Below are positions 31,371 through 60,698 of a stretch of 64,000 nucleotides of DNA, piece by piece. Under the pieces are notes generated by a model that was given only the letters and a program-made list of their open reading frames with translations, was not told where the DNA came from and did not search any database. Each line of letters begins with the position of its first letter. Within the stretch, counting starts at the first letter, position 1. Position numbers and translations under genes: made by a program. Origin of the DNA: Heptranchias perlo (Eukaryota); the NCBI RefSeq assembly GCF_035084215.1, contig NC_090328.1:5642001-5706000 (forward strand). The letters are read 5' to 3'.

Positions 31371-32903
31371 GTATTTAGTACTGAACTCCCCTCCGATAGT
31401 TATTCAGTATTAAGTACTCAGATAGTTATTTAGTATTTGTTGAGTAAAGCTGGGATTTTGAAGGGGAGTTTGATATTTGAAACAAAACAATTTAAAATGT
31501 AAACCAAGTGTCTGCCCAGGAGGAGCCAATGAAAATACACAAACAGCTGTTCATTTATTGCACTGTTCACAATGATTGCAGCTCCATCATGTAACTTTGA
31601 TACACTGACAGTGAAACCCCCGACTCACTCTGAGACCAGCGAGTGAAAGCTGACTGACCTCCTGCAATGACCTCCCGTCACAGCCGATGATTTGGAAACA
31701 GCAGCCAGTTCCCCGAGCAAAGCACCCGTAATAATTGGTGTTTCGATCCCGTGAACCCGTCATACCCACAGTCACCTCTGCTCCTTGACCTCTCCCACTA
31801 CTTACATCATAGGTAAAGCCTGTGGCCTATAAATTGGTCCGTTTTCCGGGCGCTAACCGGCCTACTCAACCCCCAATATGGCGGGCAGGAAGCACACACA
31901 CACATTTCAGGCCTGAAGTGCCCAGCCTGCCATATTGGTGCAGGAGAAAAACAACAGGCGTCCAGGGCCCAGGCCTGAAACAGGTGTTAGGCCCTTTGCA
32001 TATGGAAATAAGGAGTCTAATGCCTGGTTCAGGCTCTCACTGCAAGATTGGTTTGCCCTGTGGCAGCCTGCACTGGCATTCAGTGAATCCGGCTTTGGGA
32101 CAGCCTGCTACCTACAAGGTAAGTTTTAGAAATTTACTTACCTGAATGTGGAGTCAGGAGGAGCAGGACTGTTCGCCCTGACCCCAATTTAACAATCGCA
32201 CGCTCCCACTCCCAACCCTCCCTCCCCACCGATCTCTGTCACTCCCGAACCCCGGCCTCCTCTCCTGACCCCCGGCCTCCTCTCCCGACCCCCGACCTCC
32301 TCTCCCGACCCCCCGACCTCCTCTCCCGACCACCGACCCCCTCTCCCGACCCCCGACCTCCTCTCCCAACCACTGACCCCCTCTCCCGACCCCCGACCTC
32401 ATTTACCTGAGGATCGCTGCGACACGAGCAACGGCCCGATCTTGGTCTCCTCATCGCTGACTGGCTGTTCGCATCTCGCAAGCTCCATTACAATGAGGCC
32501 GAGGCCCAATATTGGGGGAGCACCATTCAGGTGCAGGGAGGCCTCACCTCCTCCTCTCCCGTCCCCTCCTCCTCCTCTCCCGTTCCCACTTCCCCTCCCC
32601 ACTCCCCCGCCCCATGCCCGAAATTGCGGTGCTGTAATTGTTACCCCTGTGTGTTTATACAGACTTGTATTGAGAATGATCGTATACGGATTTCATTGGA
32701 ATGACAGTGTGATGCAGAGCCGAGCCGAATAGCTGATTAACAGGAATAATTTTGCACTCAGGACCCAGGATCACTGGGTGAATGATCGCTAAAACGAGTA
32801 CAGGTTAAATTGCTGGATGAGATTCAGTGCGGGGGGCTGGGGGGGAGAGGAACAGCTTTATATTGCAGTTTGGACATTGGGTTTCTCAGCCTCCTGGGAT
32901 GAA

Positions 32904-32919
32904 TCATTCCTGCTCCTTC
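32904..32919 (-). CDS. Candidate terminal coding exon of the Siglec-15-like gene (R-KEQE*)
   Basis: Strong acceptor CTCACTTTAATTGTTCTTGTTTTATCCACAG|G; reading phase 2 from the TM exon gives R-K-E-Q-E-stop. No homology support. Confidence 0.3.
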
Positions 32920-37031: not shown

Positions 37032-40000
37032 TAATCTCCATGGATTCAGTATCGAGGGGTAATCTCCATGGATTCAGTATCCAGGGGTAATCTCCATGGA
37101 TTCAGTATCTATGGGTAATCTCTATGGATTCAGTATCTATGGGTAATCTCCATGGATTCAGTATCTACGGGTAATCTCTATGGATTCAGTATCTATGGGT
37201 AATCTCTATGGATTCAGTATCTACGGGTAATCTCTATGGATTCAGTATCTATGGGTAATCTCTATGGATTCAGTATCTACGGGTAATCGCCATGGATTCA
37301 GTATCTATGTGTAATCTCCATGGATTCAGTATCCATGGGTAATCTCTATGGATTCAGTGTCTATGGGTAATCTCCATGGATTCAGTATCTACGGGTAATC
37401 TCTATGGATTCAGTATCTACGGGTATTCGCCATGGATTCAGTATCTATGGGTAATCTGCATGGATTCAGTATCTATGGGTAATCTCTATGGATTCAGTAT
37501 CCATGGGTAATCTCTATGGATTCAGTATCTACGGGTATTCGCCATGGATTCAGTATCTATGGGTAATCTCCATGGATTCAGCATCAATGGGTAATCTCCA
37601 TGTGTTCAGTATCTATGGGTAATCTCCATGAATTCAGTATCTACGGGTAATCTCCATGCATTCAGTATCTATGGGTAATCTCCATGGATTCAGTATCTAC
37701 GGGTAATCTCCATGGATTCAGTATCTATGGGTAATCTCCATGGATTCAGTATCTATGGGTAATCTCCAAGGATTCAGGATCCATGGATAATCTCCATGGG
37801 TTCAGTATCTATGGGTAATCTCCATCGATTCAGGATCTATGGGTAATCTCTATGGATTCAGTATCTGTGGGTAATCTCCATGGATTCAGTATCGATGAGT
37901 AATCTCGACGGATTCAGTATCTATGAGTAATCTCCATGGATTCAGTAACGATGTGTAATCTCCATGGATTCAGTATCGATGAGTAATCTCCATGGATTCA
38001 GTTTCTATGGGTAATCTCCATGGATTCAGTATCTACGGGTAATCTCCACGGATTCAGTATCTATGGGTAATCAGTATGGATTCAGTATCTATGAGTAATC
38101 TCCATGGATTCAGTATCTACGGGTAATGTCCATGGATTCAGTTTCTATGGGTAATCTCAATGGATTCAGTATCTACGGGTAATCTCCACGGATTCAGCAT
38201 CCATGGGTAATCTGAATGGATTCAGTATCAATGGATAATCTCCATGGATTCAGTATCTATGAGTAATCTCCATAGATTCAGTATCTATGGGTGATCTCCA
38301 TGGATTCAGTATCTACGGGTAATCTCCACGGATTCAGTATCTACGGGTAATCTCCACGGATTCAGTATCTATGAGTAATCTCCATAGATTCAGTATCTAT
38401 GGGTGATCTCCATGGATTCAGTAGCTATGAGTAATCTCCATGGATTCAGTATCTATGGGTAATCTCCATGGATTCAGTATCTATGAGTAATCTCAATGCA
38501 TTTAGCATCTACGGGTAATCTCCATGGATTCAGTTTCTACGGGTAATCTCCACGGATTCAGTATCTATGGGTAATCTGTATGGATTCAGTATCCATGAAT
38601 AATCTCCATGGATTCAGTATCGATGGGTAATCTCCATGGATTCAGTATCTATGGGTAATCTCTATGGATTCAGTATCCATGGGTAATCTCTATGGATTCA
38701 GTATCTACGGGTATTCGCCATGGATTCAGTATCTATGGGTAATCTCCATGGATTCAGCATCAATGGGTAATCTCCATGTGTTCAGTATCTATGGGTAATC
38801 TCCATGAATTCAGTATCTACGGGTAATCTCCATGCATTCAGTATCTATGGGTAATCTCCATGGATTCAGTATCTACGGGTAATCTCCATGGATTCAGTAT
38901 CTATGGGTAATCTCCATGGATTCAGTATCTATGGGTAATCTCCAAGGATTCAGGATCCATGGATAATCTCCATGGGTTCAGTATCTATGGGTAATCTCCA
39001 TCGATTCAGGATCTATGGGTAATCTCTATGGATTCAGTATCTGTGGGTAATCTCCATGGATTCAGTATCGATGAGTAATCTCGACGGATTCAGTATCTAT
39101 GAGTAATCTCCATGGATTCAGTAACGATGTGTAATCTCCATGGATTCAGTATCGATGAGTAATCTCCATGGATTCAGTTTCTATGGGTAATCTCCATGGA
39201 TTCAGTATCTACGGGTAATCTCCACGGATTCAGTATCTATGGGTAATCAGTATGGATTCAGTATCTATGAGTAATCTCCATGGATTCAGTATCTACGGGT
39301 AATGTCCATGGATTCAGTTTCTATGGGTAATCTCAATGGATTCAGTATCTACGGGTAATCTCCACGGATTCAGCATCCATGGGTAATCTGAATGGATTCA
39401 GTATCAATGGATAATCTCCATGGATTCAGTATCTATGAGTAATCTCCATAGATTCAGTATCTATGGGTGATCTCCATGGATTCAGTAGCTATGAGTAATC
39501 TCCATGGATTCAGTATCTATGGGTAATCTCCATGGATTCAGTATCTATGAGTAATCTCAATGCATTTAGCATCTACGGGTAATCTCCATGGATTCAGTTT
39601 CTACGGGTAATCTCCACGGATTCAGTATCTATGGGTAATCTGTATGGATTCAGTATCCATGAATAATCTCCATGGATTCAGTATCGATGGGTAATCTCCA
39701 TGGATTCAGTATCTACGGGTAATCTCCATGGATTCAGTATCCACGGGTAATCTCCATGGATTCAGTATCTATGGGTAGTCTCCATGGATTCAGTGTCTAT
39801 GGGTAATCTCTATGGTTTCAGTATCTATGAGTAATCCCATGGATTCAGCATCTATGGGTAATCGCACTGGTTTCAGTATCTATGGGTAATCTCCATGGAT
39901 TCAGTATCGATGAGTAATCTCGATGGATTCAGTATCTATGAGTAATCACCATGGATTCAGTAACTATGGGTAATCTCCATGGATTCAGTATCGATGAGTA

Positions 40001-43000
40001 ATCTCCATGGATTCAGTTTCTATGGGTAATCTGACTGGTTTCTGTATCTGTGGGTAATCTCCATGGATTCAGTATCTATGGGTAATCTCCATGGATTCAG
40101 TATCCATGGGTAATCTCAATGGATTCAGTATCTATGGGTAATCTCTATGGATTCAGTATCTATGGGTAATCTCCATGGATTCAGTATCTATGGGTAATCT
40201 CTATGGATTCAGTATCTATGGGTAATCTCAATCGATTCAGTATCTATGGGTAATCTCTATGGATTCAGTATCTATGGGTAATCTCCATGGTTTCCGTATC
40301 TATGGGTAATCGCCATGGATTCAGTTTCGATGGGAAAACTCCATGGATTCAGTATCTATGGGTAATCTCCATGGATTCAGTATCTACGGGTAATCTTCAT
40401 GGATTCAGTATCTATGGGTAATCTCAATGGACTCAGTATCTATGGGTAATCTCCATGGATTCAGTATCTATGGATAATCTCCATGGGTTCAGTATCTATG
40501 GGTAATCTCCATGGATTCAGTATCTATGGGTAATCTCTATGGATTCAGTATCTACGGGTAATCTCCATGGATTCAGTATCTATGGGTAATCTCCATGGAT
40601 TCAGTATCAATGGGTAATCTCCATGGATTCAGTATCTACGGGTAATCTCCATGGATTCAGTATCTATGGGTAATCTCCATCGATTCAGTATCTACGGGTA
40701 ATCTCCATGGATTCAGTATCTATGGGTAATCTCCATGGATTCAGTATCTACGGGTAATCTCCATGGATTCAGTATCTCTGGGTAATCTCCATCGATTCAG
40801 TATCTATGGGTAATCTCTATGGATTCAGTATCTGTGGGTAATCTCCATGGATTCACTATCTGTGGGTAATCTCCATGGATTCAGTATCCATGGGTAATCT
40901 CCATGGATTCAGTATCTATGGATAATCTGCATGGATTCAGTATCTATGGGTAATCTCCATGGATTCAGTATCTATGGGTAATCTCCATGGATTCAGTATC
41001 TATGAGTAATCTCCATGGATTCATTATCTATGGGTAATCTCCATGGATACATTATCTATGAGTAATCTCAATGGATTTAGCATTGACGGGTAATCTCCAT
41101 GGATTCAGTTTCTACGGGTAATCTCCACGAATTCAGTATCTATGGGTAATCTGTATGGATTCAGTATCCATGAATAATCTCCATGGATTCAGTTTCTATG
41201 GGTAATCTCCATGGATTCAGTATCCATGGGTAATCTCCATGGATTCAGTATCTATGGGTAATCTCCATGGATTCAGTATCTATGGGTAATCTCTATGGTT
41301 TCAGTATCTATGGGTGATCTCTATGGATTCAGTATCGATGAGTAATCTCGATGGATTCAGTATCTATGAGTAATCTCCATGGATTCAGTAACTATGTGTA
41401 ATCTCCATGGATTCAGTATCGATGAGTAATCTCCGTGGATTCAGTTTCTATGGGTAATCTCCATGGATTCAGTATCTACGGGTAATCTCCACGGATTCAG
41501 TATCTATGGGTAATCAGTATGGATTCAGTATCCATGAGTAATCTCCATGGATTCAGTATCTACGGGTAATCTCCATGGATTCAGTTTCAATGGGTAATCT
41601 CCATGGATTCAGTATCTACGGGTAATCTCCACGGATTCAGTATCCATGGGTAATCTGAATGGATTCAGTATCTATGGGTAATCTCCATGGATTCAGTATC
41701 CATGGGTAATCTCCATGGATTCAGTATCTACGGGTAATCTCCATGGATTCAGTATCTATGGATAATCTCCATGGATTCAGTATCTATGAGTAATCTCCGT
41801 GGATTCAGTATCTATGGGTAATCTCCATGGATTCAGTAGCTATGAGTAATCTCCATGGATTCAGTATCTATGGGTAATCTCCATGGATTCAGTATCTATG
41901 AGTAATCTCAATGGATTTAGCATCTACGGGTAATCTCCATGGATTCAGTTTCTACGGGTAATCTCCACGGATTCAGTATCCATGAATAATCTCCATGGAT
42001 TCAGTATCTATGGGTAATCTCTATGGATTCAGTATCTATGGGTAAACTCTATGGTTTCAGTATCTATGAGTAATCCCATGGATTCAGCATCTATGGGTAA
42101 TCTCACTGGTTTCAGTATCTATGGGTAATCTCTATGGATTCAGTATCGATGAGTAATCTCCATGGATTCAGTATCTATGAGTAATCTCCATTGATTCAGC
42201 AACTATGGGTAATCTCCATGGATTCAGTATCGATGAGTAATCTCCATGGATTCAGTTTCTATGGGTAATCTCCATGGATTCAGTATCTATGGGTAAACTC
42301 TATGGTTTCAGTATCTATGAGTAATCCCATGGATTCAGCATCTATGGGTAATCTCACTGGTTTCAGTATCTATGGGTAATCTCTATGGATTCAGTATCGA
42401 TGAGTAATCTCCATGGATTCAGTATCTCTGAGTAATCTCCATTGATTCAGCAACTATGGGTAATCTCCATGGATTCAGTATCGATGAGTAATCTCCATGG
42501 ATTCTGTATCTACGGGTAATCTCCACAGATTCAGTATTTATGGCTAATCAGTATGGATTCAGTATCCATGAGTGATCTCCATGGATTCAGTATCTACGGG
42601 TAATCTCCACGGATTCAGTATCTATGGGTAATCTGACTGGTTTCAGTATTTATGGATAATCTCTATGGATTCAGTATCGATGAGTAATCTCCATGGATTC
42701 AGTATCTATGAGTAATCTCCATTGATTCAGCAACTATGGGTAATCTCCATGGATTCAGTATCTATGGGTAATCTCCATGGATTCAGTATCTATGGGTAAT
42801 CTCCATGGATTCAGTATCTATGGGTCAGCTCAATGGATTCAGTATCTATGGGTAATCTCCATGGATTCAGTATCTATGGGTAATCTCCATGGATTCAGTA
42901 TCTATGGGAAAACTCCATGGATTCAGTATCTATGGGTAATCTCGATGGATTCAGTATCTATGGGTAATCTCCATGGATTCAGTTTCTATGGGTAATCTCC

Positions 43001-44059
43001 ATGGATTCAGTATCTATGGGTAATCTCCATGGATTCAGTATCTATGGGTAATCTCCATGGATTCAGCATCTATGGGTAATCTCCATGGATTCAGTATCTA
43101 TGGGTTATTTCCATGGATTCAGTATCTATGGGTAATCTCCATGGATTCAGTATCCATGGGTAATCTCCATGGATTCAGTATCTATGGGTTATTTCCATGG
43201 ATTCAGTATCTATGGGTAATCTCCATGGATTCAGCATCTATGGGTAATCTCCATGGATTCAGTATCTATTAGTTATTTCCATGGATTCAGTATCTATGGG
43301 TAATCTCCATGGATTCAGTATCCATGGGTAATCTCCATGGATTCAGTATCTATGGGTTATTTCCATGGATTCAGTATCTATGGGTAATCTCCATGGACTC
43401 AGTATATATGAGTAATCTCCATGGACTCAGTATCTATGGGTAATCTCCATGGATTCAGTCTCTCTGGGTAATCTCCATGGATTCAGTATCTATGGGTAAT
43501 CTCCATGGACTCAGTATATATGAGTAATCTCCATGGACTCAGTATCTATGGGTAATCTCCATGGATTCAGTATCTATGGGTAATCTCCATGGACTCAGTA
43601 TCTCTGGGTAATCTCCATGGATTCAGTATCGATGGGTAATCTCCATGGATTCAGTATCTATGGGTAATCTCCATGGATTCAGTATCTATGGGTAATCTCC
43701 ATGGACTCAGTATCTCTGGGTAATCTCCATGGATTCAGTATCGATGGGTAATCTCCATGGATTCAGTATCTATGGGTAATCTCCATGGACTCAGTATCTA
43801 TGGGTAATCTCCATGTGTTCAGTATCTATGGGTAATCTCCATGGATTCAATATCTATGGGTAATCTCCATGGATTCAGTATCTATGGGTAATCTCCATGG
43901 ATTCAGTATCTACGGGTAATCTCCATGGATTCAGTATCTACGGGTAATCTCCATGGATTCAGTATCTATGGGTAATCTCCATGGATTCAGTATCTACGGG
44001 TAATCTCCATGGATGCAGTATCGATGGGTAATCTCCATGGATTCAGTATCTCTGGGTAC

Positions 44060-46116: not shown

Positions 46117-46216
46117 CTGGTTTTGTCCCTGAGTAAAATGATCCACATCACTAAAAGGGCGAGGAGTTTCAATCCAAGTGAAATGGACAACATCGCAATG
46201 GGGAAAAGCTCTGTAA
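46117..46216 (-). CDS. Transmembrane exon of the Siglec-15-like receptor, with intramembrane Lys
   Basis: Pyrimidine tract + CAG acceptor (phase 1; alternative in-frame AG 6 nt downstream) and donor CAG|GTATGT (phase 2). Encodes TELFPIAMLSISLGLKLLALLVMWIILLRDKT; LGLKLL parallels the LGFKAL of mammalian Siglec-15. Confidence 0.82.
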
Positions 46217-47002: not shown

Positions 47003-47149
47003 TCACTTAATCAAAACCTGTAGGACTGTAGGCAAGTGTGACACTCGACTGTAGGGCAGAAATATGGTGATTGACGTGATGGAGCTGAGCTAGACAAGGT
47101 ATATGGGCTGTGAATGAAGAACGACAAACGGATAGTAACAATAATATAG

Positions 47150-50100
47150 TATCTCACAGTGACAGGTTAATACTGTAGTATAGTGAGAGGTTAATACTGT
47201 AGTACTTACAGTGACAGGGTTAATACTGTAGTACTTACAGTGACAGGGTTAATTCTGTAGTACTTACAGTGACAGGGTTAATACTGTAGTACTTACAGTG
47301 ACGGGGGTATATACTATAGTACTTACAGTGATGGGGGTATATACTATAGTACTTACAGTGATGGGGTATATACTATCGTACTTACAGTGACAGGGTTAAT
47401 ACTGTAGTACTTACAGTGACAGGGTTAATTCTGTAGTACTTACAGTGACAGGGTTAATACTGTAGTACTTACAGTGACGGGGGTATATACTATAGTACTT
47501 ACAGTGATGGGGGTATATACTATAGTACTTACAGTGATGGGGTATATACTATCGTACTTACAGTGACGGGGGTATATACTATAGTACTTACAGTGACGGG
47601 GGTATATACTATAGTACTTACCGTGATGGGGTCTCTACTATAGTACTTACAGTGATGGGGTATACACTATAGTACTTACAGTGACGGGGTATATACTATA
47701 GTACTTACAGTGATGGGGCATATACTATAGTACATACAGTGACAGAGGTAAATACTCCAGTACTTACAGTGATGGGGCATATACTATAGTACTTACAGTG
47801 ACGGGGGTAAATACTATAGTACTTACCGTGATGGGGCATATACTATAGTACTTACAGTGACAGGGGTAAATACTATAGTACTTACAGTGATGGGGCATAT
47901 ACTATAGTACTTACAGTGATGGGGCATATACCATAGTACTTACAGTGACAGGGGTAAATACTATAGTATTTACAGTGATGGGGCATATACTATAGTACTT
48001 ACAGTGATGGGGGTATATAATATAGCACTTACAGTGATGGGGGTATATACTATAGTACTTACAGTGACGGGGTAAATACTATAGTACTTACAGTGATGGG
48101 GCATATACTATAGTACTTACAGTGATGGGGGTATATATTATAGTACTTACCGTGATGGGGTCTCTACTATAGTACTTACAGTGATGGGGTATATACTATA
48201 GTACTTACAGTGATGGGGTATATACTATAGTACTTACAGTGAAAGGGGTATATACTCTAGTACTTACAGTGAAAGGGGTATATACTCTAGTACTTACAGT
48301 GACAGGGTATATAATATAGTACTTACAGTGACGGGTAAATACTATAGTACTTACAGTGACCGTGGTAATTACAATAGTACTCACAGTGATGGGTAAATAC
48401 TATAGTACTCACAGTGTCAGGGGCAAATACTATAGTAGTTACAGTGACAGGGGTAAATACTATAGTACTTACAGTGACAGGGCAAATACTGTAGTACTTA
48501 CAGTGACAGGAGTAAATACTATAGTACTTACAGTGACAGGTAAATACTATAGTACTGACAGTGATGGGGTAAATACTATAGTACTTACGGTGACAGGAGT
48601 AAATACTATAGTACTTACAGTGATGGGTAAATACTATAGTACTTACAGTGACAGGAGTAAATACTATAGTACTTACCGTGACAGGAGTAAATACTATAGT
48701 ACTTACAGTGATGGGTAAATACTATAGTACTTACGGTGACAGGAGTAAATACTATAGTACTTACAGTGATGGGTAAATACTATAGTACTTACAGTGACAG
48801 GAGTAAATACTATAGTACTGACAGTGACAGGAGTAAATACTATAGTACTTACAGTGATGGGTAAATACTATAGTAGTTACAGTGACAGGAGTAAATACTA
48901 TGGTAATTACTGTGACAGGGTAAATACTATAGAACTTACAGTGACAGGAGTAAATACTATAGTAGTTACAGTGACAGGAGTAAATACTATAGTACTTACA
49001 GTGACAGGAGTAAATACTATAGTAGTTACAGTGACAGGACTAAATACTATTGTACTTACTGTGACGGGGCAAATACTATAGTACTTACAGTGACAGGTAA
49101 ATACTATAGTACTCACAGTGTCAGGGGAAAATACTATAGTAGTTACAGTGACAGGGGTAAATACTATAGTACTTACAGTGACAGGGCAAATACTGTAGTA
49201 CTTACAGTGACAGGAGTAAATACTATAGTACTTAAAGTGACAGGTAAATACTATAGTACTTACAGTGATGGGGTATATACTATAGTACTTACAGTGACAG
49301 GGTATATACTATAGTACTTACAGTGAAAGGGGTATATACTCTAGTACTTACAGTGACAGGGTATATAATATAGTACTTACAGTGACGGGGGTAAATACTA
49401 TAGTACTTGAAGTGACAGGTAAATACTATAGTACTTACAATGGTAGGTGTAAATATTATAGTACTCACAGTGAAAGGGGTATATACTATAGTACTCACGG
49501 TAGCAGGGGTAAATACTATAGTAATTACAGTGGTCAGGGTAAATACTATATTACTTACAGTGATGGGTATATAATATAATAGTTACAGTGATGTGGTATA
49601 TACTATAGTACTTACAGTGGTAGGTGTAAATATTATAGTACTCACAGTGAAAGGGGTAAATACTATAGTACTCACGGTAACATGGGTAAATACTATAGTA
49701 CTTACAGTGACAGGTAAGTACTATAGTACTTACAGTGATGGGTAAATACTATAGTACTTACAGTGATGGTTAAATACTATAGTACTTACAGTGACCGGGG
49801 TAATTACAATAGTACTCACAGTGATGGGTCAATACTATAGTACTCACAGTGTCAGGGGCAAATACTATAGTAGTTACAGTGACAGGGGTAAATACTATAG
49901 TACTTCCAGTGACAGGGCAAATACTGTAGTACTTACAGTGACAGGAGTAAATACTATAGTACTGACAGTGACGGGGTAAATACTATAGTACTTACGGTGA
50001 CAGGAGTAAATACTATAGTACTTACAGTGATGGGTAAATACTATAGTACTTACAGTGACAGGGCAAATACTGTAGTACTTACAGTGACATGAGTAAATAC

Positions 50101-52627
50101 TATAGTACTTACAGTGACCGGGGTAATTACAATAGTACTCACAGTGATGGGTAAATACTATAGTACTCACAGTGTCAGGGGCAAATACTATAGTAGTTAC
50201 AGTGACAGGGGTAAATACTATAGTACTTCCAGTGACAGGGCAAATACTGTAGTACTTACAGTGACAGGAGTAAATACTATAGTACTGACAGTGACGGGGT
50301 AAATACTATAGTACTTACGGTGACAGGAGTAAATACTATAGTACTTACAGTGATGGGTAAATACTATAGTACTTACAGTGACAGGGCAAATACTGTAGTA
50401 CTTACAGTGACATGAGTAAATACTATAGTACTTACTGTGACGGGGTAAATACTATAGTACTTACAGTGACAGGAGTAAATACTATAGTACTTACCGTGAT
50501 GGGTAAATACTATAGTACTTACAGTGACAGGGGTAAATACTATCGTACTTACAGTGACAGGAGTAAATACTATAATACTTACAGTGATGGGTAAATACTT
50601 TAGTACTTACAGTGACAGGTAAATACTATAGTACTTACAGTGACAGGAGTAAATACTCTAGTAGTTACAGTGACAGGACTAAATACTATTGTACTTACTG
50701 TGACGGGGCAAGTACTATAGTACTGACAGTGACAGGAGTAAATACTATAGTACTTACAGTGATGGGTAAATACTATAGTAGTTGCAGTGACAGGACTAAA
50801 TACTATTGTACTTACTGTGACGGGGCAAATACTATAGTACTTACAGTGACAGGTAAATACTATAGTACTCACAGTGTCAGGGGAAAATACTATAGTAGTT
50901 ACAGTGACAGGGGTAAATACTATAGTACTTACAGTGACAGGGTATATAATATAGTACTTACAGTGACGGGGGTAAATACTATAGTACTTGCAGTGACAGG
51001 TAAATACTATAGTACTTACAATGGTAGGTGTAAATATTATAGTACTCACAGTGAAAGGGGTATATACTATAGTACTCACGGTAACAGGGGTAAATACTAT
51101 CGTAATTACAGTGGTCAGGGTAAATACTATATTACTTACAGTGATGGGTATATAATATAGTAGTTACAGTGATGTGGTATATACTATAGTACTTACAGTG
51201 GTAGGTGTAAATATTATAGTACTCACAGTGAAAGGGGTAAATACTATAGTACTCACGATAACATGGGTAAAAACTATAGTACTTACAGTGATGGGTAAAT
51301 ACTATAGTACTTACAGTGACCGGGGTAATTACAATAGTACTCTCAGTGATGGGTAAATACTATAGTACTCACAGTGTCAGGGGCAAATACTATAGTAGTT
51401 ACAGTGACAGGGGTAAATACTATAGTACTTACAGTGACAGGGCAAATACTGTAGTACTTACAGTGACAGGAGTAAATACTATAGTAATTACAGTGACAGT
51501 TAAATACTATAGTACTGACAGTGACGGGGTAAATACTATAGTACTTACGGTACAGGAGTAAATACTATAGTACTTACAGTGATGGGTAAATACTATAGTA
51601 CTTACAGTGACAGGAGTAAAGACTATCGTAGTTACAGTGACAGGAGTAAATACTATAGTACTTACTGTGACAGGGTAAATACTATAGCACTTACAGTGAC
51701 AGGAATAAATACTGTAGTAGTTACAGTGACAGGAGTAAATACTATAGTACTTACTGTGACGGGGTAAATACTATAGTACTTAAAGTGACACGAGTAAATA
51801 CTATAGTACTTACCGTGATGGGTAAATACTATAGTACTTACAGTGACAGGGGTAAATACTATAGTACTTACAGTGACAGGACTAAATACTATTGTACTTA
51901 CTGTGACGGGGCAAATACTATAGTACTTACAGTGACAGGAGTAAATATTATAGTAGTTACAGTGACAGGACTAAATACTATTGTACTTACTGTGACGGGG
52001 TAAGTACTATAGTACTTACAGTGACAGGAGTAAATACTATAGTAGTTACAGTGACAGGAGTAAATACCGTAGTACTTACAGTGCCAGGAGTAAATACTAT
52101 AGTACTTACAGTGACAGGAGTAAATACTATAGTACTTACAGTGACAGGAGTAAATACTATAGTTCTTACAGTGACAGGAGTAAATACTATAGTACTTACA
52201 GTGACAGGGGTAAATACTATAGTACTTACAGTGACGGGGTATATAGTACTTACAGCGACAGGAGTAAATACTATAGTACTCAGTGTCAGGGGTAAATACT
52301 ATAGTAGTTACAGTGACAGGAGTAAATACTATAGTACTCACAGTGTCAGGGGTAAATACTATAGTACTTACAGTGACAGGAGTAAATATTATAGTACTCA
52401 CAGTGTCATGGGTAAATACTACAGTACTTACAGTGACAGGAGTAAATACTATAGTATTCAGTGTCGGGGTAAATACTATAGTACTTACAGTGACAGGAGT
52501 AAATACTATAGTACTTACAGTGACAGGAGTAAATATTATAGTACTTACAATGGTAGGTGTAAATATTATAGTACTCACAGTGAAAGGGGTATATACTATA
52601 GTACTCATGGTAACAGGGGTAAATACC
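47150..52627. repeat. About 30-bp AT-rich minisatellite, about 185 copies
   Basis: Unit GGAGTAAATACTATAGTACTTACAGTGACA (28-30 bp variants). Confidence 0.99.
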
Positions 52628-52880: not shown

Positions 52881-53199
52881 TTTGGATTCTCTGCTTCAAA
52901 TGTTGATCTACTCTTCCATTAAAAGATACAATAGTCTCTGCCTCAACCATTCCCTCTGACAGAGCATTCCATGCTCCAATAACCCTCTGTGTGAAGAAAT
53001 TTCTCCCAACTCTCTCCTCACTCTGTTAGTGATCGTTTCAAACTGCTGACCCCTCGTCACTGGCTCCCCAACCGGAGGGAATGGATCTTTCCCTATCCAT
53101 CCTATCAAAACCCTTCACTACTTCAAAAACCTCTATCAAATCTCCTCTTAACCTTTTCTGCTCCAGTGGAAACAGTCGCAGTATCTCAAGTCTGCCCAA

Positions 53200-54440
53200 T
53201 AGACAAGCTCCCAATCAGTGTCATTCCCGATGCCAAGGGAGGAAAGAACAAAAGGGAAGGACTCTGATAGGGTGGAGGGCAGGAGTGATTAAATTACAAA
53301 AGGGATGATGATGGTGCAAGGCAAGGAGGGTGGGAATGGGAGAAGTAAAGAAACAAAAGATTGGTCAGGAGTAGCTGTGAATGGCAGCAGCAGAACCATT
53401 ACCAGCACCTACTGTCCGAAAAAATGGGAGCAGTGGTTATGATCTGAAGTTATTGAAATCAATGTTAAGTCCAGAAGGTTGTAAAGTCCCTAATTGAAAG
53501 ATGAGGTGCTGTTTCTTGAGCTTCTGTTGAGCTTCATTGGAACAGTGTAAGAGGCCGAGGACAGAGGGGTCAGAGTGGGAATGGGACGGGGGATTAAAAT
53601 GGCAAACGACCGGCAGGTCAGGGTCTCACTTGCAGACAGAGCGGAGGTGTTCAGCAAAGCGATCACCCAATCTGTGTTTGGTCTCCCCAGTGTAGAGGAG
53701 ACCGCATAGTGAGCAGTGAATACAGTATAGTAAATTGAAAGAAGTGCAAGTAAATCACTGTTTCACCTGGAAGGAGTGTTTGGGGCCGTGGATGGTGGGA
53801 AGGGAGGAGGTGAAAGGGCAGGTGTTGCATCTCCTGCGCTCGCACGGGAAGGTGCCGTGGGGAGGAGAGCGGGTGTTGGGGGTGATGGAAGAGTGGACCA
53901 GGGTGTCACGGAGGGAGCGGTCCCTTCGGGATACTGAAAGGGGAGAGGAGGGGAAGATGGGATCGCGCTGGAGGTGGCGGAAATGGCGGAGGATGATACG
54001 TTGAATGTGGAGGCTGGTGGGGTGGAAGGTGAGGACAAGGGGGACCCTATCATGGTTCTGGGAGGGGAGGGAAGGGGTGAGGGCAGAAGTGAGGGAAATA
54101 GGATGGACACGGTCGAGGCCCCTGTCAACTACAGTGGAGGGAAATCCTCGGTTGAGGATAAAGGAAGACCTAGCAGAAGCACTGGTGTGGAAGGTGACAT
54201 TGTCAGAACAGATGCGACGGAGACGGAGAAACTAGGAGAAGGGAATAGAATCCTCACAGGAAGCAGGGTGGGAGGAAGTGTAATCAAGGTAGCTGTGGGA
54301 GTCGGTGGGCTTATAATAAATATTGGTTGACAGCCTATCACCAGAAATGGAGATAGAGAAGTCGAGGAAGGGAAGGGAAGAGTCGGAGATGGACCAGGTG
54401 AAGACAACGGAAGGGTGGAAATTGGAAGCAAAGTTGATTT
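53200..54440 (-). mobile_element. Penelope-like (Neptune-type) element fragment, copy A
   Basis: Minus-strand RT-thumb/linker (RVPLVLTFHP, RDRSLRDTLV), CxxxxCxxC motif and GIY-YIG-like region. Confidence 0.85.
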
Positions 54441-54442
54441 TT

Positions 54443-55201
54443 TACATCAACGTCAGAGAGCAAATGGGGCCTCGGTTTAACGCCTCATCCGAAAGACAGG
54501 ACCGCCGACAGTGCAGCACTCCCTTAGTACTGCCCCACGGACAGTGCAGCACTCCCTCAGTACAGCCCCTCCGACATTGCAGCACTCCCTCAGCTCTGCC
54601 CCACCGACAGTGCAGCACTCCCTCAGTACCGCCCCTCCGACAGTGCAGCACTCCCTCAGTACCACCCCTCCGACAGTGCAGCACTCCCTCAGTACCACCC
54701 CTCCGACAGTGCAGCACTCCCTCAGTACCGCCCCTCCGACAGTGCAGCACTCCCTCAGTACCACCCCTCCGACAGTGCAGCACTCCCTCAGTATCTCCCC
54801 TCCGACAGTACAGCACTCCCTCAGTATCTCCCCTCCGACAGTACAGCATTCCCTCAGTATCTCCCCTCCGACAGTGCAGCACTCCCTCAGTATCTCCCCT
54901 CCGACAGTACAGCACTCCCTCAGTATCTCCCCTCCGACAGTACAGCGCTCCCTCAGTACTGCCCCTCCGACAGTACAGCACTCCCTCAGTATCTCCCCTC
55001 CGACAGTGCAGCACTCCCTCAGTATCTCCCCTCCGACAGTGCAGCACTCCCTCAGTATCTCCCCTCCGACAGTACAGCACTCCCTCTGTACTGGCACTGG
55101 AGCAACAGCCTGGATTTTGTGCTCAAATCTCTGGAATGGGGACTTGAACCTTTGATCTTCTGACTCAGAGCGACAGTGCTCCCCACTGAGCCATGGCTGA
55201 C
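54443..55201 (-). mobile_element. Deu-type SINE 5' part with an internally amplified 33-bp minisatellite
   Basis: Head TGGCTCAGTGG/GGTTCAAGTCC on the minus strand; unit CCGACAGTGCAGCACTCCCTCAGTACTGCCCCT, about 18 copies. Confidence 0.9.
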
Positions 55202-55275
55202 GAGTGTTTTCTGTTACACCGTCCCCCTCACTGTACAACCTCTCAACACTGGAGAATGTGGGAATGTTTTCTTAC

Positions 55276-55638
55276 TTTGAAAGACCTGCAGCCGTGTCTC
55301 ATTCTGGACCAGATAGTCATTAGGTTTATTTTTGTTCCATCCCTTGTGCTCCACCAGACACAGGTAAGTGCTGCTGTTCTTCACACTCAGCTGGTTTATC
55401 CTGGTTGAGGCGTTTCCCTTCATTGGGTCCCCGACGAGCTCGTACCGATTTCCACCGTTTACCGTAGTCCACGATCCGTTCGATTGGGCTCTAAATGTGA
55501 CTTTGTGTTGGTAGGGCTCCTTCCTCATCCATGTAACACTGAGCTGGAGGGTGATCCCACTGGGCGGTGTGAACATACAGGGCAATGTAACCGAACCTCC
55601 CTCGGTCCCACTCACCACTGGGACATTTCCACCAGCAG
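55276..55638 (-). CDS. Ig V-set exon (domain 3, duplicate of domain 2) of the Siglec-15-like receptor
   Basis: Acceptor TTTGTCCTTTCCTCAG|, donor CAAA|GTAAGA, 363 nt, phase 1/1; GGSVTLPC...W...YLC V-set motifs. Confidence 0.88.
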
Positions 55639-56121
55639 CTGAGGAAAGGACAAACATCAGAATGGATCAGTGTCTTGATGAGAACTTTAATTTATTTCAG
55701 TTCAGTGCTCTCCCTGTGGCCCAGTAGGTAGAGGCCCTGCCCGGTGTAGTTCTCAGCCACTAAAGATTCTGTCTTGATCCTACCTACCTGCATCACACTG
55801 TATTTGTTTAGGTTAAATGCCATTTGCCATTGGTCCCAGAAACGCCAAGAAGATTCCATCGATTTCAGGGGCAATATCGGAGGAGGGTTAAGGTACAGGT
55901 AACGGCACCTCCGACAGTGCAGCACTCTCTCAGTACTGCCCTGAAGGGTGAGCTTAGCAGCAGTGATCCAATCGGCAATGTCTCCCTGAGATCCACCCAC
56001 CAATTCTCCACAGGTCCAACCCGCCCCCATCAGCTTTGGGCTGGACACTGCAGACCCACAGAACTGAGACTGGGCGGTGGGAATCGCTGATTTCAATAAT
56101 ATAAGAACAAATCTCTCGCAT

Positions 56122-57068
56122 CGAAAGATGAGGTGCTGTTCCTCGAGATTACGTTGAGCTTTATTGGAACAATGCAGGAGTCCGAGGACAGAGGGGTCAG
56201 AGTGGGAATGGGACGGGGGATTAAAATGGCAATCGACCGGCAGGTCAGGGTCTCACTTGCGGACAGAGCGGAGGTGTTCAGCAAAGTGATCACCCAATCT
56301 GCGTCTGGTCTCCCCAGTGTAGAGGAGACCGCATTGTGAGCAGTGAATACAGTATAGTAAATTGAAAGAAGTGCAAGTAAATCACTGTTTCACCTGGAAG
56401 GAGTGTTTGGGGCCGTGGATGGTGGGAAGGGAGGAGGTGAAGGGGCAGGTGTTGCATCTCCTGCGCTCGCACGGGAAGGTGCCGTGGGGAGGAGAGCGGG
56501 TGTTTGGGGTGATGGAAGAGTGGACCAGGGTGTCACGGAGGGAGCGGTCCCTTCGGGATACTGAAAGGGGAGAGGAGGGGAAGATGGGATCGCGCTGGAG
56601 GTGGCGGAAATGGCGGAGGATGATACGTTGAACGTGGAGGCAGGTGGGGTGGAAGGTGAGGACAAGGGGGACCCTATCATAGTTCTGGGAGGGAAGGGAA
56701 GGGGTGAGGGCAGAAGTGAGGGAAATAGGACAGACACGGTCGAGGCCCCTGTCAACTACAGTGGAGGGAAATCCTCGGTTGAGGATAAAGGAAGACCTAG
56801 CAGAAGCACTGGTGTGGAAGGTGACATTGTCAGAACAGATGCGACGGAGACGGAGAAACTGGGAGAAGGGAATAGAATCCTCACAGGAAGCAGGGTGGGA
56901 GGAAGTGTAATCAAGGTAGCTGTGGGAGTCAGTGGGCTTACAATAAATATTGGTTGACAGCCTATCACCAGAAATGGAGATAGAGAAGTCGAGGAAGGGA
57001 AGGGTGGAGTCGGAGATGGACCAGGTGAAGACAACGGAAGGGTGAAAATTGGAAGCAAAGTTGATTTT
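56122..57068 (-). mobile_element. Penelope-like fragment, recombinant copy (left part like copy B, right part like copy A)
   Basis: 56122-56190 matches 58880-58950; from about 56190 onward it matches 53563-54440. Confidence 0.88.
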
Positions 57069-57069
57069 T

Positions 57070-57959
57070 TACATCAACGTCAGAAAGCAAATGGGGCCTC
57101 GGTTTAACGCCTCATCTGAAAGACAGGACCGCCGACAGTGCAGCACTCCCTCAGTGCTGCTCCACGGACAGTGCAGCACTCCCTCAGTACTGCCCCTCCG
57201 ACAGTGCAGCACTCCCTCAGTACCACCCCTCCGACAGTGCAGCACTACCTCAGTACCTCCGCTCCGACAGTGCAGCACTCCCTCTGTACTACCCCTCCGA
57301 CAGTACAGCCCTCCCTCTGTACTGCCCCTCCGACAGTGCAGCACTCCCTCTGTACTGCCCCTCCGACAGTGCAGCACTCCCTCTGTACTACCCCTCCGAC
57401 AGTACAGCCCTCCCTCAGTACTGCCCCTCCGACAGTGCAGCACTCCCTCAGTATCTCCCCTCCGACAATGCAGCACTCCCTCTGTACTGCCCCTCCGACA
57501 GTACAGCACTCCCTCTGTAACTCCCCTCCGACAGTGCAGCACTCCCTCAGTATCTCCCCTCCGACAGTGCAGCACTCCCTCAGTACCTCCCCTCCGACAG
57601 TGCAGCACTCCCTCTGTACTGCCCCTCCGACAGTACAGCACTCCCTCTGTAACTCCCCTCCGACAGTGCAGCACTCCCTCAGTATCTCCCCTCCGACAGT
57701 ACAGCGCTCCCTCAGTATCTCCCCTCCGACAGTGCAGCACTCCCTCAGTATCTCCCCTCCGACAGTGCAGCACTCCCTCTGTACTGCCCCTCCGACAGTG
57801 CAGCACTCCCTCAGTATCTCCCCTCCGACAGTACAGCGCTCCCTCTGTACTGCACTGGAGCAACAGCCTGGATTTTGTGCTCAAATCTCTGGAATGGGGA
57901 CTTGAACCTTTGATCTTCTGACTCAGAGCGACAGTGCTCCCCACTGAGCCATGGCTGAC
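57070..57959 (-). mobile_element. Duplicated Deu-type SINE with 33-bp minisatellite (about 22 copies)
   Basis: Paralogue of 54443-55201, about 131 bp longer. Confidence 0.9.
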
Positions 57960-58033
57960 GAGTGTTTTCTGTTACACCGTCCCCCTCACTGTACAACCTC
58001 TCGACACTGGAGAATGTGGGAATGTTTTCTTAC

Positions 58034-58396
58034 TTTGAAAGACCTGCAGCCGTGTCTCATTCTGGACCAGATATTCATTAGGTTTATTTTTGTTCCATCC
58101 CTTGTGCTCCACCAGACACAGGTAAGTGCTGCTGTTCTTCACACTCAGCTGGTTTATCCTGGTTGAGGCGTTTCCCTTCATTGGGTTCCCGACGAGCTCG
58201 TACCGATTTCCACCGTTTACCGTAGTCCACGATCCGTTCGATTGGACTCTAAATGTGACTTTGTGTTGGTAGGGCTCCTTCCTCATCCATGTAACACTGA
58301 GCTGGAGGGTGATCCCACTGGGCGGTGTGAACATACAGGGCAATGTAACCGAACCTCCCTCGGTCCCACTCACCACTGGGACATTTCCACCAGCAG
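58034..58396 (-). CDS. Ig V-set exon (domain 2) of the Siglec-15-like receptor
   Basis: Same splice sites as 55276-55638; 363 nt, phase 1/1. SVTLPCMFTPP..VTWMRKEPY..RYELVGNP..YLCLVE resembles the Siglec-15 V domain. Confidence 0.9.
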
Positions 58397-58879
58397 CTGA
58401 GGAAAGGACAAACATCAGAATGGATCAGTGTCTTGATGAGAACTTTAATTTATTTCAGTTCAGTGCTCTCCCTGTGGCCCAGTAGGTAGAGGCCCTGCCC
58501 GGTGTAGTTCTCAGCCACTAAAGATTCTGTCTTGATCCTACCTACCTGCATCACACTGTATTTGTTTTGGTTAAATGCCATTTGCCATTGGTCCCAGAAA
58601 TGCCAAGAAGATTCCATCGATTTCAGGGGCAATATCGGAGGAGGGTTAAGGTTCAGGTAACGGCACCTCCGACAGTGCAGCACTCTCTCAGTACTGCCCT
58701 GAAGGGTGAACTTAGCAGCAGTGATCCAATCGGCAATGTCTCCCTGAGATCCACCCACCAATTCTCCACAGGTCCAACCCGCCCCCATCAGCTTTGGGCT
58801 GGACACTGCAGACCCACAGAACTGAGACTGGGCGGTGGGAATCGCTGATTTCAATAATATAAGAACAAATCTCTCGCAT

Positions 58880-59625
58880 CGAAAGATGAGGTGCTGTTCC
58901 TCGAGATTACGTTGAGCTTCATTGGAACAATGCAGGAGTCCGAGGACAGAGGTCAGAGTGGGAGTGGGACAGAGAACTAAAATGGCAAGCGACCAGAATC
59001 TCTGGGTCAATACTGCGGACTGAGTGGAGGTGTTCAACAAGGCGATCACCCAGTCTGCGTTTGGTCTCCCCAGTGTAGAGGAGACCTCATTGTGAGTTGG
59101 AAGAAGTGCAAGTAAATTGCTGTTTCACCTGGAAGGAGTGTTTGGGGCCCTGGACGGTGGGAAGGGAGGAGGTGAAGGGGCAGGTGTTGCATCTCCTGCG
59201 CTCACACGGGAAGGTGCCGTGGGGAGGAGAGCGGGTGTTGGGGGTGATGGAAGAGTGGACCAGGGTGTCACGGAGGGAACGGTCTCTTCGGAATGCTGAG
59301 AGGGGAGGGGTGGGAAAGAGATATTTGGCGATGCCATCGGCTGGAAGTGGTGGGTAATGGCGGAAGATGATCCGTTGAACCTGGAGGCTGGTGGGGTAGA
59401 AGGTGAGGACAAGGGGGACCCTATCGTGGTACTGGAAGGGTGGGGGATGTGTGAGGGCAGAAGTGCGGGAAATGGGACGGACACGGTCGAGGGCCCTGTG
59501 AACCACAGTGGAGGGGTATCCTCAGTTGAGGAGAAAGGAAGACGTATCGGATATATCGGAAGCACTGGTGTGGAAGGTGGCATCATCGGAACAGATGTAA
59601 CGGAGATGGAGAAACTGGGAGTAAT
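58880..59625 (-). mobile_element. Penelope-like fragment, copy B
   Basis: ORF 59087-59506: RVPLVLTFYP...FRRDRSLRDTLVHS...PCERRRCNTC...FTCTSSN. Confidence 0.85.
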
Positions 59626-60132
59626 GTGAGAAGTCATGTGAGACTATCACAGGTCTGTACACCCGACCAAGTGGTCTGTTCTCAATCACCTGCGAGACTC
59701 CGTTATTGCTGTTTGGGAAGATCTTTGAAAAGCTGAAGACTTTGAAAATCTGGACTTAATTCCAACTCTATAAACAGGTTCATTTTCCAGTGGTTCAGAA
59801 ACAGGGAAGGTTTAGCACCAGCCTGGCACACAGAGACAGTCTCGACCTTGCCCAGAGACACTGAAGTTTATTTTACTAATTTACTCCGCTCCTCTCCTGA
59901 ATTGCTTGGCTTATGTCTTTGGCATCTAGATAACATCGGTAAGACCAAGGTAACATATTGCTAGACGAGGAAAGACCAAGGTCCATCTACTTCACCTTCT
60001 ACCATCCCGATCCCCTTCAAAGCCCGGGGCTGCTGAGAGCTTATTGATCTGTGGGGCTCAGGACCAGACCAGGTGGAGCCTTTACCCATTGAACTATTGG
60101 GGCAGGTACAGCCCCTGAACATTGTTCCTTAC

Positions 60133-60525
60133 CTCTCACTCCCAGGCTCGTTAGTTCCAATGATTCAAATTTGCCAATATTGAGCTCCACATGACACTTA
60201 TAATAACCGCTGTCCATCTGGTTCAGTCCTTCCATCATTATCGAGGCATCGTTGTCGCTGAGATTCCCCACGAATCTGTATCGATTCCCGCCGTCCTTCT
60301 GTATCACATTCTCACACAGCTTACTCCGTGAATGGCCGGGACCATAATATATACAGTTAAAAGGAACGTGTCTGCTCAATGAGTCCTTTTTGAACCATAT
60401 CACAGAGCCACTGACTGTACGACCAGGGAATGGGGCGGTAAACCTGCACGGCAAGACAGCAGACTGCCCTTCCTCAGCAATCACTTCATCCGGGCCGTGC
60501 ATTGTCCAACCATTAAGATTATACT
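60133..60525 (-). CDS. Ig V-set exon (domain 1) of the Siglec-15-like receptor
   Basis: Acceptor (CT)n-CCCCACACAG|, donor GAG|GTAAGG, 393 nt, phase 1/1. WTMHGPDEVIAEEGQSAVLPCRFT, the FNC...KLC extra Cys pair, RYRFVGN and YKCHVEL..KFES align by eye with the Siglec-15 V-set domain. Confidence 0.92.
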
Positions 60526-60698
60526 CTGTGTGGGGAGAGAGAGAGAGAGAGAGGGGCAATATTAAAACAGCACTGGGTCAGACATTAGTGTTTCGATAAC
60601 ATACTGTGAGACAATATACTGACTCTGATATACAGTGACAACGGATATAACATCACATGGTCAAATTGGGATGGTTTATACTTGGAGAGTGGACATTG

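Follow-up and report, generated by a model that had tools for sequence, protein, structure and literature searches.

Homology-type transposon rearrangements (transposable element-mediated rearrangements by homology, TEMR-HR; Balachandran et al. 2022, PMC9675761) include duplications, and in the part of that report considered here they join direct Alu or LINE-1 copies of about 80% similarity into a chimeric element in register, with a median microhomology of 17 bp; annealing and microhomology-mediated replication are named as routes, and classical non-allelic homologous recombination (NAHR) is distinguished by more than 100 bp of identity. For the human KIR hybrid genes, which are repeat-mediated products in an immunoglobulin (Ig)-superfamily immune-receptor cluster, the account of Traherne et al. 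(PMC2816608), as far as considered here, uses diagnostic letters to narrow the breakpoints down to 93 bp inside an Alu and to 44 bp inside an MLT1. Here a 64,000-nucleotide stretch of the shark Heptranchias perlo (GCF_035084215.1, NC_090328.1, positions 5,642,001 to 5,706,000; the window) is compared with these systems. It carries a minus-strand receptor gene in which a 2.7-kb segment with a V exon is present twice, and this doubling probably arose by unequal exchange between mispaired, 87%-identical Penelope-like fragments flanking the exon, within an identical tract of 11-33 bp.

Self-comparison of the window gave direct matches between 53493-55090 and 56120-57717 and between 54505-56865 and 57264-59621. 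Together with pairwise alignment, this defined unit 1 at 53555..56181 (2627 bp) and unit 2 at 56182..58939 (2758 bp), in agreement with an earlier note on this DNA, which had claimed a tandem duplication of about 2.7 kb with a Penelope fragment, a SINE (short interspersed nuclear element) minisatellite and a V exon in each unit; all three were found in both. The difference in unit size equals the difference in copy number of a 33-bp minisatellite, which follows a SINE head and has 17.8 copies in unit 1 (54436..55092) and 21.9 in unit 2 (57063..57853). The head, which had no library match, is presumably a SINE, judging from the look of the repeat and its copies across the window. In the pairwise alignment, the half holding the Penelope-like fragment and SINE head differed at 22 of 946 bp without gaps, and the half after the minisatellite, which holds the V exon, at 9 of 1112 aligned bp. 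The doubled exons, V2b (55276..55638, unit 1) and V2a (58034..58396, unit 2), are on the minus strand and 363 nt long, with intact AG/GT ends, phase 1 on both sides and no stop, and both match the Pfam V-set domain (E about 1e-14). They differ in three codons, all non-synonymous (3 against 0 synonymous), which is too few for selection to be read.

The three Penelope-like fragments, all on the minus strand, are named L (left), M (middle) and R (right) and were compared in a three-way alignment. L (53237..54438) is 5'-truncated and retains the end of the open reading frame (ORF) and the 3' part, whereas R (58878..59626) is cut at both ends. L and R are in direct orientation and differ at 94 of 723 ungapped sites (87% identical). 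M matches neither parent at two of these sites, which were dropped, leaving 92 informative sites. To the left of 56182, M is R-type at 10 sites and L-type at none; to the right, it is L-type at 75 of 82 sites and R-type at the other 7, which are scattered and include 5 changes in L. For this switch Fisher's p is 2.7e-9 at a split picked after looking, and about 2.5e-7 after a Bonferroni factor for the 91 possible splits, applied in place of permutation. Over 56117-56194, M equals R at 77 of 78 bases and L at 65 of 78. M (56120..57065) is thus R-type over 56120-56181 and L-type from 56215 at the latest, with R as parent of its left 62 bp and L of its right portion. The hybrid middle fragment proposed in the earlier note was in this way recovered by the alignment of diagnostic sites suggested there, and the sequence motifs it quoted were found in place.

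The assignment of both portions is also consistent with rare letters and end points. L and M have in common 25 letters (884 columns) carried by no more than 20% of 28 other genomic copies, which were taken as the best hits to L, and in the left 62 bp five letters are common to M and R that occur in only 0-1 of these 28 copies. L and M end at the identical point on the SINE, and M and R at the identical point on the intron. The possibility that M is an independent young insertion was ruled out by the 25 shared rare letters, the shared 5' junction and the closest other genomic copy, which was only 93% identical to L (best of 40 scored) compared with 97.7% for M. From the type switch, the rare shared letters and the common end points, M is read as a true L/R chimera, in register and without filler.

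At the junction of M, which is in direct orientation, the identity between the parents is 11-13 bp when the R of the window is used and up to 33 bp when the R of a close paralogue (paralogue B) is used. The 13-bp interval depends on a 2-bp deletion and one substitution in the window's R, both absent from the R of paralogue B. The junction interval may therefore be 56182-56194 if these changes predate the event, or 56182..56214 if they came later; the 13-bp crossover at 56182-56194 given in the earlier note stands against the window's own R and is widened by that of paralogue B. As in homology-type transposon rearrangements, direct copies of the same family flank the segment and the chimera is in register and filler-free with at least 5 bp of microhomology, both cases having repeats of about 80-90% identity (87% here) and short microhomology (11-33 bp here, a median of 17 bp in PMC9675761). 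The same 11-33 bp is below the perfect identity of more than 100 bp at the exchange point that marks classical NAHR. Unlike the Alu or LINE-1 events in the part of that report considered here, the present case concerns one sample, a shark Penelope-like substrate and the duplication of a whole symmetric coding exon. The KIR events described in PMC2816608 are deletions fusing paralogous genes, whereas here the two repeat copies are non-orthologous and the outcome is a second copy of an exon within a single gene. The duplication in the part of PMC13172734 considered here lies within an exon and does not involve transposons, and it was rejected as a precedent.

For the proposed exchange, the ancestral gene order would have been V1-R-V2-minisatellite-L-TM (TM, transmembrane exon). 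Pairing would have taken place between the L of one chromatid and the R of another, giving V1-R-V2a-minisatellite-[L/R hybrid]-V2b-minisatellite-L-TM. Annealing by itself produces deletions only, and therefore unequal crossover or template switching is left. Within this explanation, an unequal crossover between chromatids or alleles has slightly better than an even chance and a replication template switch slightly less than one, and the two are indistinguishable from this sequence. The mechanism named in the earlier note, non-allelic homologous recombination, accordingly holds as a repeat-guided junction between direct Penelope-like fragments; the 87% identity and the 11-33 bp at the junction speak against its classical form, and a template switch fits equally.

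Several observations weigh against a single exchange of this kind. The longest perfect tract between L and R, 74 bp (123 bp against the R of paralogue B), lies about 240 bp from the junction, so that the junction is outside it, although this tract could have acted as the pairing seed. No copy seen has the exact R-V2-L layout expected of the ancestor, and paralogue B is without L. A single clean event also predicts halves of equal age, but L and M differ at 20 of 881 sites (2.27%) and the V halves at 9 of 1085 (0.83%; p 0.013); the L-M divergence is also above that between R and the R of paralogue B (9/743, p 0.13). Therefore diverged alleles or later conversion are needed, and the unequal halves could stem from alleles that had already diverged when they exchanged, from conversion afterwards, or from copying prone to error, 14 of the 20 L-M changes lying in M. 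Decay of CpG sites as the cause was unsupported, since CpG changes make up 7 of 20 between L and M and 2 of 9 in the V half, with 31 CpG in each half.

These unequal halves would also be expected if the doubling were as old as the 2.3% L-M difference and the exon half had been homogenised afterwards, which is considered unlikely. This reading supposes that the two units and paralogue B afterwards underwent conversion or exchanged sequence unequally with one another, which perhaps also shifted the apparent switch. Perfect tracts of 321 and 209 bp shared by the exon halves of the two units today, and 20 derived changes in unit 2 compared with 9 in unit 1 (p 0.06), are consistent with this older duplication. 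However, it still requires a homologous-position hybrid for M, V2a and V2b group together against paralogues B and C at three sites, and the seven R-type sites to the right of the switch are scattered, with five of them being changes in L.

In the preferred reading, the exchange between L and R, further unequal exchange between the units would be plausible because they share the perfect 321- and 209-bp tracts. The proneness to copy-number change predicted in the earlier note is supported to the extent that these tracts suffice for unequal exchange; it is otherwise a prediction, and no second copy-number allele was directly observed in the one sample.

The Penelope-like nature of the fragments is well supported by sequence features. 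Pfam gave no match on the window's own fragments, and longer genomic copies gave RVT_1 (E 0.0021, locus L031) and GIY-YIG (E 0.0012, locus L029), both under the Pfam curated cut-off; in the frame of L029 the candidate reverse transcriptase (RT) is followed by the C-terminal GIY-YIG region. The frames of L, M and R contain a C-x4-C-x2-C motif ahead of the nuclease region, and a CX2-5CxxC motif upstream of GIY-YIG is given for Neptune, Nematis and Naiad elements in the part of PMC8557442 considered here. Inverted partial 3' copies were found at 2 of 28 loci (L035, L041) and a direct partial copy at L022, whereas no partial tandem or inverted copies (pLTR) were found at L, M or R. No hammerhead ribozyme was matched by Rfam at E<=1 in 52900-60000, and the Rfam scan gave two chance matches only, both in the minisatellite. 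The elements resemble endonuclease-containing (EN+) Penelope-like elements of the Neptune/Nematis type (PMC8557442, in the part considered) in the CX4CxxC linker motif, the 5' truncation and the inverted partial copies, and the candidate RT followed by C-terminal GIY-YIG of the longer copies would fit them as well. Unlike those elements, the element here was likely only a passive homology substrate, and any placement in one of their clades would be tentative.

An active role of the element is conceivable if its RT had copied an unspliced pre-mRNA (R-V2-L, on the gene's strand), with a nick in R primed on L. All three fragments are sense to the gene, and the join falls within the 3' stretch of which such elements carry repeated copies, as in the inverted copies at L035 and L041 (PMC8557442, in the part considered). 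Such an RNA-templated duplication is nevertheless very unlikely: the join shows neither a target-site duplication nor a tail, an inversion or filler, and it falls in the middle of the ORF and away from the element ends; most of the RT is missing from the local fragments, which also contain stops.

To assess whether the junction is real DNA, short-read contigs were considered. The window contains no N and sits on a 141.9-Mb contig. A 74-nt contig spanning 56165-56238 and differing at one letter was present in each of the DNA-type runs X1 and X4, together with R-type contigs ending at 56194. The 17 words of the junction contig that start at 56165-56181 occur only in M among the local copies and continue in L-type letters. 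These contigs support a real junction, short of proof. Against them it must be counted that the junction contig has 17 letters to the left of the interval compared with a 31-letter bridging rule, that it holds no certain M-private letter and contig paths are simplified, and that X1 and X4 come from one sample, possibly the assembled individual. Only one sample carries the stretch at a high share, and the runs of organisms B-F, where its share is small, do not enter the evidence. In addition, DNA and RNA contigs over 55245-55488 have C at 55393 together with V2b's C at 55429, a combination present in no assembled copy, which may be an allele of the second haplotype or a contig mosaic.

The concern is that assembly placed two haplotypes of a gene with a single such exon end to end, joining them at the Penelope repeats. 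The 0.8% difference between the exon halves is allele-like, and a V2-V2 splice is absent from the RNA contigs. Per-allele contig depths of X4 were 6.6-8.7 under a false duplication, 5.6-6.9 under a heterozygous and 4.3-5.5 under a homozygous one, so that a false duplication fits about as well as a true one; contig depth was set aside for judging copy number or zygosity because the three models fit about equally. On the other hand, a misjoin would need to fall in register within 33 bp of two 87%-identical repeats, in a window without N on the 141.9-Mb contig; words found only at the junction occur in the short-read contigs of two runs and continue L-type, and M has 14 private changes. An assembly artefact is therefore regarded as quite improbable.

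The timing of the doubling was inferred from paralogues. The genome holds four close copies of the V2 exon, namely V2a, V2b and those of paralogues B and C. Paralogue B (C4:5.803-5.845 Mb) is inverted, lies about 110 kb away and is 94-99% identical to the window gene from the leader to the last exon. It contains V1, the R fragment, one V2, the minisatellite, TM and a tail, and it has no L and a different SINE head, indicating that it is the likely pre-duplication layout with one V2 exon and R only. Since three letters unite V2a with V2b against both paralogues, and T56181 is common to M and R but absent from the R of paralogue B, the doubling postdates the split between the window gene and B, which differ by about 1.0-1.4% across R, the intron and the V half. 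The window (54436-54500 and 57063-57130) and B (G000:C4:5819000-5819051) diverge inside the SINE minisatellite; they clearly carry distinct SINE-head copies, and their V2-TM introns measure about 9 and 24 kb, which hints at another repeat-located junction. Two large intronic satellites occur in the window at 37032-44058 (28 bp x 251) and 47140-52626 (30 bp x 185), and the matching intron of B has a related array of about 68-70% identity.

For the gene itself, the V1 exon (60133..60526, upper limit approximate), the TM exon (46117..46216) and the last coding exon (32858..32919) are all on the minus strand. In database models the last exon is used in two frames, giving either a four-residue tail after TM or a 19-residue secreted-type end joined to V2. 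The protein model P0001 (641 aa) of Heptranchias perlo, identical over V2a, is labelled 'polymeric immunoglobulin receptor-like'; this name is a database label, and polymeric Ig receptor matches for V2 are weaker than those to TIM-1 and Siglec-15. In P0001 and P0052 the window exons at 60526-55276 (V1, V2a and V2b in P0001) run on into exons of paralogue C (G000:C4:4952600-4966900, about 730 kb away), namely its V2, its TM and its tail with tyrosine motifs, and P0006 and P0053 match paralogue B. The models P0001 and P0052 and the cluster annotation are probably chimeric. Family members have two to four V domains; among 55 related records, 43 are V1-V2 and 4 are V1-V2-V1-V2, and consecutive V2 domains occur only in the two models of this locus.

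Expression was followed in four presumed RNA runs of one sample (X5-X8), none recorded as RNA, whose contigs pass from exon to exon at splice sites and do not cover the introns. The V1-V2 joint (58396-60133) with window-type V1 was found in two of the four runs, the V1 contig of X5 being identical to the window, and the V2-TM splice was found in X5 and X6. Weighing against a three-domain transcript, no V2-V2 joint was present among the 15 of 17 joints shown for the four runs or in the complete list for X5 and X6, and neither of the V2a letters at 58074 and 58246 appeared in any V2 contig. Variants, and possibly a loop, are dropped in such contigs, so this absence neither proves nor excludes a three-domain form. 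The doubled exon has a length that is a multiple of three, same-phase ends, intact splice sites and an open frame, from which alone a V1-V2-V2-TM protein is predicted, with about an even chance. The in-frame Ig domain claimed as a gain in the earlier note is thus permitted by the frame, and its presence in the protein is a prediction, no V2-V2 splice having been seen in the RNA contigs.

The F-strand arginine of the V-set domain has a role in sialic-acid binding by Siglecs, in which a C2-set domain follows the V-set domain. Siglec-15 also has a lysine in its transmembrane stretch. Among solved structures, the best match of the window's V1 was Siglec-15 (PDB 7zoz, E 2.5e-10), and a lysine is likewise present in the hydrophobic stretch of the TM exon. 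Unlike Siglec-15, the second domain here is V-set rather than C2-set, and the family is multi-copy with varying domain number. At the Siglec-15 arginine position, the lysine-TM members (window and B) have His, whereas the tyrosine-tail member (C) has Arg. The window gene and B combine the lysine-bearing TM with a short tail, and the tail of C is long and contains several tyrosine motifs, which is a paired-receptor layout (window 46117-46216; B, G000:C4:5842121-5842304; C, G000:C4:4952600-4962400). Within this Siglec-15-like family of paired shark receptors, for which a literature search by title or abstract start gave no description, the window gene is a lysine-TM member.

Exon doubling is found elsewhere in the family. 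A member about 380 kb away has a second tandem V-exon doubling (C4:6076415-6077534 and 6078244-6079363), with 98.3% identity over 1120 bp, a spacing of 1829 bp and both frames open. The copies are separated by LINE-like (long interspersed nuclear element) fragments, and neither a homologous pair in the flanks nor a repeat hybrid was seen. This doubling (C4:6076415-6079363) is an independent event in a more distant family member. Carpet-shark relatives (P0002-P0005) are V1-V2-V1-V2, a different two-exon doubling within the family.

Because the parents are 87% identical, the rearrangement is an ordinary transposon-mediated event like those between Alu copies, a fresh instance of a textbook mechanism. 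A literature search by title or abstract start gave no duplication of this kind by ectopic or non-allelic recombination between Penelope copies. It is possible, though doubtful, that alleles differing in domain number still segregate at this locus, part of an undescribed family of paired Siglec-like receptors in sharks, with an activating-type member gaining a third V domain on one haplotype by Penelope-like recombination, V-exon doubling recurring in the cluster and dead retroelements serving as the length dial of the receptors. The two parents, their hybrid and a paralogue with a single V2 exon are all present in one genome, and the exon duplication, guided by transposons, can be read cleanly and dated; the locus is of value as a worked example and in drawing attention to a paired-receptor cluster that is unstudied. 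Should the V2-V2 splice prove real, it would represent one route by which domain number changes in this shark receptor family.

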